Positions 18,883 through 33,269 of a stretch of 43,436 bases of DNA are shown in pieces. This DNA is from an uncultured Clostridium sp. GTDB lineage: Bacteria; Bacillota; Clostridia; TANB77; CAG-508. Positions within the stretch are counted from its first letter, which is position 1; the number at the start of each line of letters is the position of its first letter. The stretch covers positions 1-43,436 of the forward strand of contig CAZUHD010000003.1 in NCBI GenBank assembly GCA_964620415.1, written 5' to 3'. Position numbers and translations under genes: made by a program. The notes below the pieces were generated by a model that was given only the letters and a program-made list of their open reading frames with translations, was not told where the DNA came from and made no database searches.

Positions 18883-19256
18883 ACGAGAACGAAAATAAAA
18901 ACTGTAAATGTTCTAACACAAACAATAATATGACAAGTATGCCAGATGATACAATGGTAGCATTAAATAACAGATGGAATATTGATGATGAATGTTGCTG
19001 TAATAGTAATGCAACACGTGAGGAGATGCTTCATCAAATTAAATGCTTAGCATTTGGAATACAAGAACTTGCTTTATATTTAGATACTCATCCAGACGAT
19101 GAAAAAGCTTTATGTTTACACAATAAATATTGTAAAGAATATAGAGAATTAACAGATAAATATCAAAAAATTTATGGACCATTAACTATTCATTATCCAT
19201 GTAATAAGTGGAGATGGCTTGAAGAACCATGGCCATGGGAAGGAGGGATGAATTAA
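18879..19256 (+). CDS. cotJB: Spore coat protein CotJB
   Basis: ATGA overlap with cotJA. Contains LAFGIQELALYLDTHPDDEKAL...YGPLT, typical of CotJB. Confidence 0.8.
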   Translation: MNENENKNCKCSNTNNNMTSMPDDTMVALNNRWNIDDECCCNSNATREEMLHQIKCLAFGIQELALYLDTHPDDEKALCLHNKYCKEYRELTDKYQKIYGPLTIHYPCNKWRWLEEPWPWEGGMN

Positions 19257-19453
19257 TGTGGACTTATAACAAAGTATTACAATATCCAATAAATATAAAA
19301 AATAAAGATGTTCGTTTGGCTAAATTTATAATTTCACAATATGGTGGACCAGATGGAGAACTTGGAGCATCACTTAGATATTTATCACAACGTTTTGGAA
19401 TGCCAGATCAAAATGCAAAAGCTATTTTAAATGATATAGGTACAGAAGAATAA
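19256..19453 (+). CDS. cotJC: cotJC segment 1 of 3 (codons 1-65, Mn-catalase-like spore coat protein), ended by a junction-created TAA
   Basis: TAATG overlap with cotJB. MWTYNKVLQYPINIKNKDVRLAKFIISQYGGPDGELGASLRYLSQRFGMPDQNAKAILNDIGTEE aligns to the CotJC N-terminus. The FAHLEM-type motif expected next is missing here and is found at 29737. Confidence 0.85.
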   Translation: MWTYNKVLQYPINIKNKDVRLAKFIISQYGGPDGELGASLRYLSQRFGMPDQNAKAILNDIGTEE

Positions 19454-19466
19454 GAACCATAATGAT
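19442..19466. repeat. attL of element 1: shared core ACAGAAGAAT (19442-19451) plus element half-site CCATAATGAT (19457-19466)
   Basis: The core is repeated identically at 29728-29737. The half-site is the inverted partner of ATCTTTATGG at 29717-29726. Confidence 0.7.
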
Positions 19467-19870
19467 GTCAATTTAAAATGACAATTAAAATGGGAGCTAC
19501 CCTAGTAGTAGATGAATTTGATGCTTCTATACATCCTATGACAATCATGAATATAATAAATATTTTTCATAATGACGAAATTAACATAAAAGGAGCACAA
19601 TTGATTTTTAATACTCATAATCCAATATTTTTAAATAATGCTTTATTGAGAAGAGATGAGATAAAATTTGTAGAAAATGAAGATAAAGGGAGTATTTTAT
19701 ATTCTTTATCTGATTGTGGTACAAATGGAAACAAAGGTGTTAGAAATACAGAAGATTATATGAAAAATTATTTTATCAATAAATATGGAGCAATAAGAGA
19801 CATTGATTTTTCAAATATTTTTAAAAATATAGAAGGAGAGGAAAAATATGTACTCAAAAAAAATATGTAA
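19466..19870 (+). pseudogene. C-terminal fragment of an AAA_15/21-type (AbiLi/RloA-like) ATPase
   Basis: LVVDEFDASIHPMTIMNIINIF...LIFNTHNPIFLN covers the Walker B/D-loop/H-loop end of ABC-like ATPases. The N-terminal ~2/3 is missing and the fragment starts right at the att half-site. Confidence 0.6.
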
Positions 19871-20009
19871 TAAATATTATTTATCGGTTGAAGGCGAAAC
19901 GGAGCAGTGGTATTTTGAAAGATTACAAGAGCTAATAAATAGCAAAGAAGAATTATTATGTAAGATAAAGTTTTCTTCTAAAATTAGTAAATCAATTTTT
20001 TTATTTTAA
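19848..20009 (+). pseudogene. N-terminal fragment (53 codons) of an RloB/AbiLii-like TOPRIM-type protein
   Basis: YYLSVEGETEQWYFERL matches the RloB-family N-terminal EGExTExxYF motif. The ORF ends after 53 codons, against ~200 expected. Confidence 0.45.
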
Positions 20010-20621
20010 TCGAAAAATGTCGAATTCTGTTGAACGATTTTTGTTGACAAATAGTAAAAAGACTATTAAAATTATATAGAAAGTTCTTTCAAAAATTAAT
20101 TCAAGATTTAATTCTTTATGATTTATAATAATTACAATAAAAATTAAAATCAATTGTAAAAAAATGAAGGAAAATGATAAAAAATAAACTATTAGATTTA
20201 AATGATCTCGTATTTCAAAAAATAGAAAAGTTTATTATCTATGGTATTAAAAAGGAAGATAAAAAATATAAAATTGGCTGCAGATCAGAACCTAATAGGA
20301 TATTTTAAATATAATAAAAAGGAGGTGACTGTAGTAGTACAGGTATAGTATTAATAATAAATTATAGACTGGATGAAACACAAATAATTAAAAGAACTAG
20401 AGTAACTAAAGAAGATATAAACTGTTTATATTAATAGTCTCAGAAATTTTTGAGGGCTTAAACATTTTAATTGCAGGCTATATTGTTTTGTAATGAAGTT
20501 ATATTAGTAATTAAGTATTAACATTAAAAAAACAAAAAAATAGATTCAAAACTAATTGACAATAAATACCTTTAATGGTAAAATAGAAGTGTTGAATAAA
20601 AATAAGGGAAAGGAGGATTTT

Positions 20622-31170: not shown

Positions 31171-31275
31171 ATGAATTATAACATTAAAATTGAATATGGA
31201 AATAAAGATTTAAAAAATATCATATTACAAATATTTGAGGAATACTGTAGCAATAAGATTCTTGAGAAAGATTAG
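31171..31275 (+). CDS. 34-aa ORF upstream of recombinase 2; the start is uncertain (in-frame GTG 31162 or ATG 31156 are possible)
   Basis: MNYNIKIEYGNKDLKNIILQIFEEYCSNKILEKD*. An AGAGG lies 8 nt before GTG 31162. Positionally analogous to the small ORF before recombinase 1. Confidence 0.3.
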   Translation: MNYNIKIEYGNKDLKNIILQIFEEYCSNKILEKD

Positions 31276-31348
31276 AATAAGCATTTATGTTTTACTTATA
31301 ATGTAAAAAGACAAATGATTGCCTAAACCTTAAGGGAAGGAGGTAATT

Positions 31349-32974
31349 TTGCAAAAATCAGACAACATATATGAAAAACAATTTTATGTTGGATTATATA
31401 AAAGACTATCAAGAGATGACAATGATGGAAAAAAGGAAAGTGAAAGTATATCAAATCAGGACAAGATTCTAAGACAATATATTTTAGAATTAGCTAAGAA
31501 AGAGCCTCAGAATAGATTTATTATAGTAAAAGACTATACTGATGACGGGTACACAGGAACAAATTTCAATAGACCAGGTTTTATAGAAATGATTCATGAC
31601 ATTGAAAATGAAATAATAAATATGGTACTTGTAAAAGATTTAACAAGACTAGGGCGTAAAACAAACGAAGTACTTAGATATTATCAAGAATATTTTCCGT
31701 CAAAAAAAGTTAGATTTATTACTGCAACAGAAGATGCAATTGATACATATTATAAGGAAGATGATGATTTTATTCCTTTTAAAGCTGTTATGAGTGAGCA
31801 ATATCCAAAAGAAACATCAAGAAAAATTAAAGCTGTAAAAATTGCAAAAGCAAAACAAGGTTTATTTCAAGGAAATACAGCTCCTTATGGGTATAAAAAA
31901 GATTCAAATAATAAAAACAAATTAATAATTGATAAAGAAGTGTCAGAAATTATAAAAGAAATTTTTGAAAAATATTCAGAAGGATATACTCGTACAGAAA
32001 TAGTCAAAAGCTTAAATGAACGAAATATAAAACCACCAAGAGAATATTTAAAAATAAAGGGAATACAAGCAAATTCAGAAGGATGGAAAGAAGTAACAAT
32101 AACAAGAATTATTAGTAATCCTGTATATATAGGGACTATGGTAGGAGCAAAAACTATAAAACCAAGTTTTAGAAGAAAAGAGAGAATCATAAACAGCAAA
32201 GAAAATCAAATTATTGTTGAAAATACCCATGAACCTATAATTGATATAGAAACATTTAATAAATGCCAGAAGCTGAAAGAAAAATTTAAAAATAATCGAA
32301 ATCGAAAATATGATGATATTTTTAAAGGATTGGTCTATTGCAAAGATTGTGGTAGTATTTCAACATTAAAACATAAGGAAAAATCTAACAAAAATGGAAG
32401 AAAATGTGAAATCAATTCCTATATATGCTCTAGAGCTAACAAAGGAGTAAATAAAAGATGTAATAATACAAAATCTATCAGTAGTAATAAATTATATAAT
32501 TTAATTATACAAATTATAAAAAATGAATGTAAAAGTGTTTGTTTTAATGATAATGATATACGAACAGTTATGAATAATTTAGAAAAAAATATAAATTTTG
32601 AATGTTATAGATTAGAAGATGAAAAACAAAATTTATTTGCCAAAATAGATAAACTAAATGAGCAGATAAAAATTACATATAATGATAAACTCGAAAACAT
32701 CATCAATAATGAAACTTTTTTATCTATAAAAGAACAAAAGGAAATTGAGATTGAAGAATGTAAAAAACGAATTTATGTCTTAGAGAAGAAAATAGATATT
32801 GAAAGAAATAAATATACAATAAGTTATAATGGAATTAAAAAGCTATCTGAGGATTTTTTTAATACAAATAAAATAACTAAGCAGGCATTAAATAAACTAA
32901 TAGATAAAATTGAATTTGACAGTAATCGTAACATAAATTTAAAATTAGTATTCTCAAATATAAATAACAATTAA
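31349..32974 (+). CDS. Large serine recombinase of element 2 (541 aa)
   Basis: TTG start after GGAAGGAGG. Catalytic LYKRLSRDD...VLVKDLTRLGR resolvase domain, recombinase domain (GNTAPYGYKK), zinc ribbon (CKDCGS...CSRANKGVNKRC) and coiled coil. The stop lies 25 bp from the att half-site. Confidence 0.85.
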   Translation: MQKSDNIYEKQFYVGLYKRLSRDDNDGKKESESISNQDKILRQYILELAKKEPQNRFIIVKDYTDDGYTGTNFNRPGFIEMIHDIENEIINMVLVKDLTRLGRKTNEVLRYYQEYFPSKKVRFITATEDAIDTYYKEDDDFIPFKAVMSEQYPKETSRKIKAVKIAKAKQGLFQGNTAPYGYKKDSNNKNKLIIDKEVSEIIKEIFEKYSEGYTRTEIVKSLNERNIKPPREYLKIKGIQANSEGWKEVTITRIISNPVYIGTMVGAKTIKPSFRRKERIINSKENQIIVENTHEPIIDIETFNKCQKLKEKFKNNRNRKYDDIFKGLVYCKDCGSISTLKHKEKSNKNGRKCEINSYICSRANKGVNKRCNNTKSISSNKLYNLIIQIIKNECKSVCFNDNDIRTVMNNLEKNINFECYRLEDEKQNLFAKIDKLNEQIKITYNDKLENIINNETFLSIKEQKEIEIEECKKRIYVLEKKIDIERNKYTISYNGIKKLSEDFFNTNKITKQALNKLIDKIEFDSNRNINLKLVFSNINNN

Positions 32975-32998
32975 ACAATATCTTTATCAAAAAAGTAC

Positions 32999-33020
32999 CC
33001 TTAAGTGTATAGCACCATAT
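32999..33020. repeat. attR of element 2: half-site CCTTAAGTGTATAGCACC plus core (C)ATAT
   Basis: See attL at 29891-29913. Confidence 0.75.
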
Positions 33021-33269
33021 ATTGCTTGTAAAGGAGATCCTATAGCTAATTTACAAGAGGATTTAGCAGCAGAACAAAAAGCAAGGGCAACTTATGAAAA
33101 ACTAATTGACTTATGTAGAGATAATCCAGATGTATTAGATCCACTTAAATTTTTAAGACAAAGAGAAATAGTACACTTCCAAAGATTTGGAGAAGCACTT
33201 CGTAAGGTTCAAGATAGATTACAAGATAAAAATTGTTATATGAATGATTGTAGCTGTAATAAAAAATAA
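33021..33269 (+). CDS. cotJC: cotJC segment 3 of 3 (82 codons plus stop)
   Basis: IACKGDPIANLQEDLAAEQKARATYEKLIDLCRDNPDVLDPLKFLRQREIVHFQRFGEALRKV... matches the CotJC/Mn-catalase C-terminal half (second E..H motif). Confidence 0.85.
   Translation: MACKGDPIANLQEDLAAEQKARATYEKLIDLCRDNPDVLDPLKFLRQREIVHFQRFGEALRKVQDRLQDKNCYMNDCSCNKK

Follow-up and report, generated by a model that had tools for sequence, protein, structure and literature searches.

The interrupted cotJ operon

The stretch of DNA analyzed here (the window) is the whole of one NCBI contig, CAZUHD010000003.1, 43,436 nt long, from an uncultured Clostridium sp. (assembly GCA_964620415.1). It contains a cotJABC operon, the last gene of which, cotJC, lies in three pieces separated by two elements, element 1 and element 2, each carrying a gene for a large serine recombinase (LSR1 and LSR2, respectively). 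The cotJA and cotJB genes overlap the third open reading frame (ORF) of the operon, cotJC piece 1 (start at 19256), and a candidate promoter with a -10 box of the CATA type, characteristic of mother-cell sigma factors, is situated upstream of the likely cotJA start (ribosome-binding site AGGAGG, ATG at 18529). In B. subtilis, cotJ is reportedly under sigmaE control, a result attributed to Henriques in 1995.

The three pieces of cotJC are collinear, non-overlapping and complete, and their ends are marked by exact direct repeats, ACAGAAGAAT at element 1 and CATAT at element 2. Joined at these repeats, they form an in-frame gene of 603 nt encoding 200 amino acids (aa). The order of the pieces on the same strand, all their coordinates and the uninterrupted 200-codon product had been given in the original prediction, and our analysis has reproduced all of them. 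The same prediction placed the two insertions 159 nt apart; the insertions themselves stand, while their spacing has to be corrected, as piece 2 is 158 nt long.

The joined protein matches the Pfam Mn_catalase profile (E=4.6e-53), and its full-length relatives number in the thousands among 5.8 billion proteins searched, the best match being an intact 198-aa protein with 92% amino acid identity over 98% of the length and with no gap at either junction. Moreover, the comparison with empty sites in related strains, proposed along with the original prediction, has a clear outcome: in the rabbit-gut metagenome-assembled genome (MAG) GCA_947632585.1, cotJABC is uninterrupted and is followed by the same holin-like and DUF421 genes as in the window, and its cotJC is 87% identical to the joined one at the nucleotide level, with no insertion or deletion at the junctions. 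A scan of species-representative genomes yields intact cotJC in 80 further species (78-93% identity). Within the window, neither a second copy of cotJC nor any other catalase fragment has been found.

Two Logan contigs from run SRR14209493, which constitute a second assembly possibly made from the same reads as the window contig, are exact substrings of the window (26257-28616 and 28796-36011); they span the recombinase of element 1 and, respectively, the region comprising attR1, piece 2, element 2 and piece 3. The three-piece structure of cotJC is confirmed; it is far beyond chance and is not an assembly artefact.

The claim that two different serine recombinases are involved is likewise borne out. 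Both proteins have the Pfam domains Resolvase, Recombinase and Zn_ribbon_recom, typing them as large serine recombinases, and they are 27% identical to each other. LSR1, lying 1.3 kb from attR1, is SprA-like: its intact homologue from locus L031 (here and below, L numbers denote individual loci) aligns over the full length with the SPbeta integrase SprA (PDB 9dxh, E=1.1e-41, residues 36-540 versus 15-526). LSR2 ends 41 nt before the attR2 core, and the closest solved structure for its catalytic domain is TnpX of Tn4451 (PDB 2mhc, E=7e-21). Element 2 looks competent, with no visible defect. The features of the region are listed in Table 1.

Table 1. Features of the cotJ region of the window, with the junction sequences obtained by joining
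Feature	Coordinates	Strand	Remarks
Candidate cotJ promoter	18455..18486	+	TAATATT-N17-CATATAAA, mother-cell-type CATA -10 box; proposed from sequence reading
cotJA	18493..18882 (likely start 18529)	+	Pfam CotJA 9.6e-14
cotJB	18879..19256	+	Pfam CotJB 6.1e-26
cotJC piece 1, residues 1-65	19256..19451	+	ORF runs into element 1, TAA at 19451-19453 after ..NDIGTEE
attL1 core ACAGAAGAAT	19442..19451	+	Inferred crossover dinucleotide GA, 19448-19449
Element 1	19452..29737	+	10,286 bp, 29.4% GC
AAA_21 ATPase gene, 3' fragment	19478..19870	+	Pfam, profile positions 260-304 of 304; truncated ~25 nt past attL1
Cargo surface protein, 1982 aa	20556..26504	+	Transglutaminase core, Big_2 repeats, Pro/Gly/Glu/Asn-rich repeats, C-terminal membrane anchor
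Terminator after surface-protein gene	26511-26538		
Candidate sigmaE/sigmaK-type -10 box CATACATA	26663..26670	+	17 nt before the ATG of the small ORF
42-aa ORF MIVKEFKIDETVIKINDEDINKEESEEVVNTIISIILKDYIN	26688..26816	+	Candidate recombination directionality factor; adjoins LSR1, no promoter between
LSR1, large serine recombinase, 463 aa	26825..28216	+	SprA-like; Pfam; frameshift near 28190-28200
LSR1 C-terminus, out-of-frame remainder	28128..28385	+	..ALPNFNNIMDVYDIIKTPEEKNILLKTVLSKVVYLKTKK..NFMIEIYPK; matches homologue C-termini in 71 loci
Cargo alpha/beta hydrolase	28749..29576	-	Pfam Abhydrolase_1 3.3e-23
attR1 core ACAGAAGAAT	29728..29737	+	Exact repeat
cotJC piece 2, residues 66-118	29738..29895	+	158 nt
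attL2 core CATAT	29891..29895	+	Inferred crossover dinucleotide TA, 29893-29894
Element 2	29896..33020	+	3,125 bp, 23.8% GC
Cargo type VII toxin-antitoxin pair	30022..30835	+	MntA-like nucleotidyltransferase 30022-30393, HepT-like toxin 30386-30835
Terminator, stem-loop then T run	31045..31076	+	Closes cargo; kept in relatives (alignment)
39-aa ORF (34 aa from ATG 31171)	31156..31275	+	Second candidate directionality factor
LSR2, large serine recombinase, 541 aa, intact	31349..32974	+	Pfam; TnpX-like catalytic domain
attR2 core CATAT	33016..33020	+	Exact repeat
cotJC piece 3, residues 119-200 and stop	33021..33269	+	
Joined junctions, site 1			attB1 GATATAGGTACAGAAGAATTAGCCCATTTGG; attP1 CTTTATGGAACAGAAGAATAAGAACCATAATG
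Joined junctions, site 2			attB2 TTTACTGCTGCATATATTGCTTGTAAAGG; attP2 GTATAGCACCATATGGTGCTGTTAGATT

Recombinase families and att sites at fixed cotJC positions

Insertion sites are numbered here together with the approximate cotJC residue at which they fall: site 1 at ~65, site 2 at ~118, site 3 at ~100, and site 4 at ~136. The family of LSR1 has been examined in the best 80 of 296 relatives. These recombinases (46-70% identical to LSR1) come from Clostridiaceae-like MAGs, Lachnospiraceae and Oscillospiraceae, and several belong to cultured isolates with a family-1 element at site 1, namely C. methylpentosum DSM 5476, Hominisplanchenecus faecis CLA-AA-H246, Bianquea renquensis NSJ-32, and Anaeromonas frigoriresistens D2Q-11. 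Of the 80 loci, 65 have a cotJC fragment, in every case broken at residues 58-72. The recombinase gene is situated either by the 3' piece on the same strand, or by the 5' piece on the opposite strand. Thus, our analysis has shown that element 1 belongs to an SprA-like integrase family seated at this cotJC position across many Clostridia.

In two species from different MAG projects, cotJC is frameshifted by one and the same 1-nt insertion, GAT(A/G)TA-C-GGNACTGAAGAAT (L005, 3605-3640, on the same contig as L121, and L036, 5499-5535). It lies 9-10 nt upstream of the site-1 crossover and occurs in only these 2 of ~108 site-1 sequences scanned.

Orthologues of LSR2 are found in 16 other species representatives; they are 82-88% identical to it if full length (92% in one partial match), and the complete ones are mostly 541 aa long (a few 540 or 554). 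In 14 of the 16 cases the gene borders on a cotJC fragment whose break lies at residues 113-120 (within the range 112-123), showing that the TnpX-like family of element 2 is narrower and is dedicated to the second position. Copies in loci L008, L118 and L123 are reversed; the palindromic TA centre of the core would make either orientation possible for family 2.

Two further positions are served by recombinases of their own. At site 3 (core CATGG), the recombinases of seven species form a family with 88-100% internal identity, and the family at site 4 (core CAGA) is ~40% identical to the site-3 family. In all, there are four families, falling into at least two unrelated integrase lineages, SprA-like and TnpX-like, which are 22-28% identical. 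In locus L085 (9607-13231), a cotJC fragment ends at about residue 156, and 1.8 kb from it there is a site-4-like recombinase; this is possibly a fifth insertion position.

Multiple occupancy is not restricted to the window. A second or third element is present in 17 of the 65 site-1 loci; three elements share one cotJC in L043 (sites 1, 3 and 4) and in L004 (sites 3, 2 and 4). Loci L014 and L119 have the same occupancy of sites 1 and 2 as the window, and the family-1 recombinase of L014 is intact. Moreover, in IMG/VR viral contigs of 30-55 kb (L124-L141) a family-1 integrase at the contig end is followed by cotJC starting from residue 61-65 or by a reversed 5' piece, and so phage-sized elements use site 1 too, family 1 ranging from 4-kb islands to 30-55-kb prophages. 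Several of these cotJC fragments have another break at residue 136, pointing to an adjacent site-4 element.

The attP sites were rebuilt from the element ends. The rebuilt attP1 is an imperfect palindrome (16/25) with its centre, G^A, inside the core, and attP2 (17/25) contains a perfect 16-bp palindrome, AGCACCAT^ATGGTGCT, with the centre T^A inside the core. Homologous att arms are present in relatives. Inverted repeats centred in the cores are the expected anatomy of serine-integrase att sites. In the site-1 junction cores of relatives, only GAAT or GA is common to all, which fits a GA crossover for family 1. Taken together, the data show that each element entered its fixed site by attP x attB recombination carried out by its own large serine recombinase; that both are insertions made by serine integrases at dedicated cotJC sites is essentially certain.

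The sites differ in their conservation. Among 81 intact cotJC genes, site 1 falls at the 90th percentile of nucleotide conservation, site 4 at the 99th, site 3 at the 46th, and site 2 at the 6th. The simple explanation that att sites occupy the best-conserved cotJC DNA therefore holds for sites 1 and 4 and fails for sites 3 and 2. Site 2 belongs to one of the least conserved parts of the gene, matching the narrow host range of family 2, and sites 1 and 4 presumably coincide with the metal-ligand motifs of Mn-catalases, TEE-LAH and AAE-QKAR.

A free form of a family-2 element is represented by locus L122 (JAAWGB010000075.1), a MAG contig of 5,679 nt with a 99-nt terminal overlap, corresponding to a circle of 5,580 bp. 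It encodes a family-2 integrase 75% identical to LSR2 and has a true attP, in which the P arm normally found after the integrase runs directly into the P' arm normally found after attL, cotJC flanks being absent; hence, family-2 elements occur off the chromosome in nature. This contig was retrieved with an attP2 pattern. A degenerate version of the pattern, applied to metagenome contigs, returned only another attL; it is unspecific because the proximal B half-site equals the P half-site. A more specific version had no match in viral contigs and seven in genome contigs, with L122 being the only true free attP. Five of the matches were rejected as junctions of integrated elements, L118, L123 and probably L120 in the reverse orientation, and L119 and L121 as attL; such junctions mimic attP, since the B half-site resembles the P half-sites. 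The match in L117 is an attP-like site inside the reversed element of L008, both being on contig USGK01000028.1. This 8-kb family-2 element has the core CATCAG in a cotJC allele lacking the TAT codon, and ~20 nt in from its right end it has a complete attP-like site of the standard kind, which may be what is left of a nested or tandem element.

Proposed excision during sporulation and alternative explanations

Elements of this kind are known from other sporulation genes: skin in sigK, SPbeta in spsM, vfbin in spoVFB, vrin in spoVR, gin in gerE, and yin in yabG. Excision is sporulation-specific for SPbeta, gin and the C. difficile skin, and growth-phase dependent for yin. In B. subtilis, the SPbeta integrase SprA is expressed on its own, and the small recombination directionality factor (RDF) SprB, transcribed from a mother-cell promoter, triggers excision from spsM (PMC4191935, PMC5499854). 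As in the case of SPbeta, an element with a large serine integrase splits here a mother-cell gene for a spore surface function, and the LSR1 family is homologous to SprA over the full length. Unlike the window, where two elements of 10.3 and 3.1 kb with no phage genes occupy one gene, SPbeta is a single 134-kb active phage in a different target; moreover, the 42-aa candidate RDF of the window has no similarity to SprB, and the window integrase is truncated. The gin element in gerE of Bacillus cereus ATCC 10987 (GirC, GirX) is closer in being a non-phage element in a very short gene, with a serine recombinase, a 42-aa RDF without a conserved motif, and sporulation-specific excision; it differs in being a single insertion and in the proven function of GirX, in vivo and in vitro, whereas the small ORFs of the window are positional candidates (PMC5595907). 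The skin elements (B. subtilis SpoIVCA/Skr, C. difficile CD1231/CD1234), vfbin, vrin and yin belong to the same class, with a recombinase element in a mother-cell gene removed at sporulation, differing in their target genes, in having one element per gene, and in being mostly degenerate prophages (PMC5025042, PMC6957869, PMC10747680).

For multiple occupancy, the nearest precedent is provided by the nif genes of cyanobacteria: nifD of Rivularia PCC 7116 contains four elements (PMC4874684), and nifBHDK of Calothrix NIES-4101, divided into 13 parts, is restored by seven excisions and two inversions (PMC11249958). As in cotJC, several independent recombinase elements of heterocyst systems (nifD, fdxN/XisF, hupL) interrupt one gene required solely in a terminally differentiated cell, which is restored once all of them have left; in contrast, the phylum and the cell type are different, and tyrosine and serine recombinases are mixed there. 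The window recombinases are not XisF, scoring 95.8 and 74.7 bits with the NCBIfam model against its cutoff of 375.

The mobilisable or conjugative transposons Tn4451 and Tn5397 (TnpX, TndX), which are small clostridial elements with a large serine recombinase and a circular form, resemble element 2 as well, the similarity of LSR2 being limited to the catalytic domain. Such elements have a GA crossover, many insertion sites, and mob or conjugation functions. The inferred palindromic TA centre of element 2, its one dedicated site, and its set of recognised genes (only MNT, HepT, the small ORF and LSR2) set it apart from transposons of this type.

The original prediction knew of no description of cotJC as a target. 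This needs amending, since a passage of a preprint names cotJC as a frequent integration locus, citing Abe et al. 2013, Mol Microbiol 90:415 (bioRxiv 10.1101/2021.11.22.469490). In the papers on phiS9/phiS63 and phi027, cotJC is mentioned only as a neighbouring gene. Our literature search, which did not extend to Abe et al. 2013 itself, revealed no description of the cotJC sites, their dedicated recombinase families or small-ORF modules, nor of several different elements in one sporulation gene or of excision from cotJC.

In the upstream alignments, three families of cotJC elements have one layout, in which the cargo terminator is followed by a ~40-aa ORF with a strong ribosome-binding site, the recombinase and the att site. 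The small ORFs show coding-type conservation. Those upstream of LSR1 homologues are 41-51 aa long, and the 42-aa ORF of element 1 is predicted as a gene in the Logan contig as well. The distant family-1 members from the cultured isolates have no recognisable small ORF. The 39-aa ORF of element 2 (ribosome-binding site AAGAGGTG) is kept upstream of LSR2 in 13 loci, its third-position changes being mostly synonymous, and its N-terminus resembles that of the small ORF from the site-3 family. No profile-profile similarity is seen between the small ORFs of family 1 and those of families 2 and 3. In size and position they match the directionality factors of known intervening elements, such as the 42-aa GirX of gin (PMC5595907) and Skr, which overlaps the 5' end of spoIVCA, and by this analogy they are positional candidates for the same role.

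The region upstream of the small ORFs differs between the families. In family 1, a CATA box stands at a fixed distance from the ribosome-binding site of the small ORF in about 25 of 29 loci (variants CATACATA, CATATCTA, CATAAACT, CATAGAAT and others), and it is kept even in subgroups whose flanks are otherwise unalignable. The -10 consensus of sigmaE and sigmaK, CATATTAT/CATATAAT, is of this CATA type in Bacillus and C. difficile, and the cotJC-like operons of C. difficile are sigmaK-dependent (PMC3789822). Most relatives have a sigmaA-like promoter between the small ORF and the recombinase, TTTACA-N17-TATAAT in family 2 and TGTATAAT in family 3. As the window has none between the 42-aa ORF and LSR1, a promoter at the CATA box would drive both. 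A mother-cell promoter was considered for the small ORF of element 2 and rejected, the motif GCATAAACC being only partly conserved (GAATAAAC in six relatives). A sigma-70 scan of the region is uninformative in such AT-rich DNA, giving 114 sites versus 103 expected.

Given these features, we lean slightly towards developmental excision of the skin/SPbeta/gin type as the mechanism at the level of the families. The original prediction, which is partly supported, had likewise compared the locus with skin and SPbeta and noted that two coordinated excisions would be required. During growth, the element would stay in the chromosome through the action of the integrase. In the mother cell, a promoter of the sigmaE/sigmaK type would turn on the presumed ~40-aa directionality factor encoded upstream of the integrase (and, in element 1, the integrase as well), and attL x attR recombination would release each element as a circle. 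The two excisions would be independent and could proceed in either order, cotJABC would make the Mn-catalase coat protein only after both, and the forespore chromosome would retain both elements. This reading is plausible in view of the convergence of at least two unrelated integrase lineages, in four families, on one 600-bp mother-cell gene, which is the signature of documented intervening elements. It is also favoured by the division into integrase and small protein resembling that of SPbeta, by the family-1 CATA box, by the free circle, and by the complete split cotJC genes, 12 of 14 of which re-join to intact ORFs.

More tentatively, and on balance doubtfully, cotJC may be a multi-site docking gene for at least four families of large serine recombinases, at residues ~65, ~100, ~118, ~136 and perhaps ~156. 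It would then harbour one to three or more elements per genome, each with an integrase and a ~40-aa factor under a mother-cell sigma factor, so that several co-timed excisions would be needed.

A number of observations weigh against developmental excision. Enzymes of the TnpX/TndX type can carry out excision with no RDF, and spore formation in model species does not require cotJC-type catalases. Neither Pfam nor PDB has a match for the small ORFs, which show no detectable homology to known RDFs either, and no convincing mother-cell promoter is seen in the upstream alignments of families 2 and 3. By exact look-up, neither the fully joined CotJC nor either of the single-excision products occurs in the protein collection, and no excised circle from this strain was seen. 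Two of the 14 complete split cotJC genes (L005 and L036) contain a frameshift. LSR2 is more conserved than the neighbouring host genes (83-88% versus 62-75%), and most LSR2 hosts lack the downstream synteny of the window; a co-divergence test on these grounds rejected long vertical residence; this points to recent spread and not to long domestication, and the intact cotJC pieces may reflect the youth of the insertions.

Further points of this kind come from element 1 itself. LSR1 homologues are single ORFs of 510-560 aa, and in the window the conserved last ~60-70 residues (..LPN..DVY..KTPEEKN.LLKTVL....YLKT......NF.I..YPK) lie in another frame, a lesion that the original prediction had missed and that is identical in Logan contig L115; the LSR1 ORFs of L038 and L068 are shortened, too. 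The lost segment aligns with SprA residues ~475-526. In the structures of the SPbeta integrase, the sequence following the coiled coil belongs to DBD2, where F532 is important for directionality control and is flanked by the essential RDF helix (PMC11722253). Because the lost segment corresponds to the part of DBD2 bearing the RDF-contact residue, the truncated LSR1 is probably inactive, at least in RDF-dependent excision. With its frameshifted integrase and truncated ATPase cargo gene, element 1 looks to be in decay. Complete reconstitution of cotJC in this genome probably fails, unless another family-1 integrase acts in trans, and the LSR1 lesion makes it less likely than either developmental excision at the family level or the use of cotJC as a mere insertion target, considered below.

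The main alternative is that cotJC serves as a safe harbour: ordinary islands and prophages use a dispensable gene as attB, their carriers lack CotJC or rely on a paralogue, and excision is only sporadic, for transfer. Further insertions into a dead gene would cost nothing, hence the pile-ups. The horizontal spread of the LSR2 module, more conserved than its hosts' genes, agrees with this view, as do the cargo, which differs from host to host, the existence of phage-sized members, and the signs of decay (the frameshifted LSR1, the truncated ATPase, the short LSR1 in L038 and L068, the cotJC frameshifts in L005 and L036). The poor conservation of site 2 also fits, indicating that conservation alone does not explain the targeting. 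Furthermore, C. difficile has several cotJC-like genes, and its cotCB and cotD mutants show only reduced catalase activity (PMC11222575). On the other hand, the convergence of unrelated integrase lineages, the positionally conserved CATA-type box before the family-1 small ORF, and the mostly intact re-joined ORFs speak against it, and the studied serine-recombinase elements in mother-cell genes (SPbeta, gin, C. difficile skin and yin) all excise. We consider this alternative possible, with a probability clearly short of even.

Even if the families truly excise, cotJC could be dead in this strain only, the LSR1 frameshift having fixed element 1 and made the gene a permanent pseudogene, with element 2 excising to no avail; this is a sub-case of developmental excision and not an independent rival. 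The frameshift is repeated in the second assembly (possibly from the same reads), the lost LSR1 segment, conserved in 71 loci, aligns with the DBD2 region that follows the coiled coil in SprA, and the ATPase gene beside attL1 is truncated. However, the three cotJC pieces and both pairs of att sites are still perfect, which implies that the LSR1 lesion is recent or tolerated, and another family-1 integrase, encoded outside this contig, could supply the activity in trans. As an explanation of its own, a permanently dead locus is rated improbable. Much less credible still is a chimeric or misassembled MAG contig, or three unrelated catalase fragments. The structure does come from a single contig, found also in a Logan metagenome-style assembly, the close relatives are all MAGs, and such contigs can be chimeric. 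Yet the Logan assembly has identical junctions, the pieces fit together as parts of one gene, and the same architecture recurs in dozens of assemblies from different projects.

The finding extends a known class without introducing a new principle, and the system is probably partly defunct in this contig. The cases described so far concern one element in one gene, with cotJC only listed as a target. If developmental excision takes place, two independent rearrangements (three or more in relatives) would have to be co-timed in one small gene, raising questions of timing, efficiency and the cost of failure, and the phenomenon would reach many uncultured and a few cultured gut Clostridia, whose transmission is driven by sporulation. 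Several orthogonal sets of integrase, small RDF and att sites co-resident within ~200 bp would then be of use for genome engineering, and multi-site docking would give the firmicutes a parallel to the nif genes of heterocystous cyanobacteria with their multiple interruptions. If the elements are not excised, cotJC would be a preferred dumping ground for mobile DNA, and many gut Clostridia would form spores lacking this catalase, with a bearing on oxidative resistance. Either outcome is testable in the cultured strains that emerged from the comparison of relatives.

Cargo and chromosomal context

The cargo of element 1 begins directly after attL1 with the truncated AAA_21 ATPase gene and a short RloB-like-looking ORF (19478-20009), probably a decayed defence-type module. 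In a comparison with L034-L036 and L048, locus L036 has ~1.1 kb extra between attL and the ATPase segment, which leaves space for a full-length ATPase gene. The large surface protein contains a run of PGEDNPGNEPEN-like repeats (25990-26400) preceding the C-terminal hydrophobic anchor. A protein 34% identical to it is encoded in L016 outside the element, just 3' of cotJC.

The toxin-antitoxin pair, the sole recognisable cargo of element 2, is identified by Pfam Polbeta/NTP_transf_2 and HepT-like_2 (1.5e-31), with the MntA-like protein scoring 40.2 bits in NCBIfam MntA, under the 60-bit cutoff. Among relatives, it is common only to the window and L010, and it could stabilise element 2 in the population.

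The chromosome upstream of the operon (1380-4425 and 13718-14422) encodes a truncated-looking AAA_14/DUF4143 ATPase, a HipA-like kinase, and a SleB-type cortex hydrolase (Hydrolase_2 and PG_binding_1), a context that fits the chromosome of a spore-forming host.

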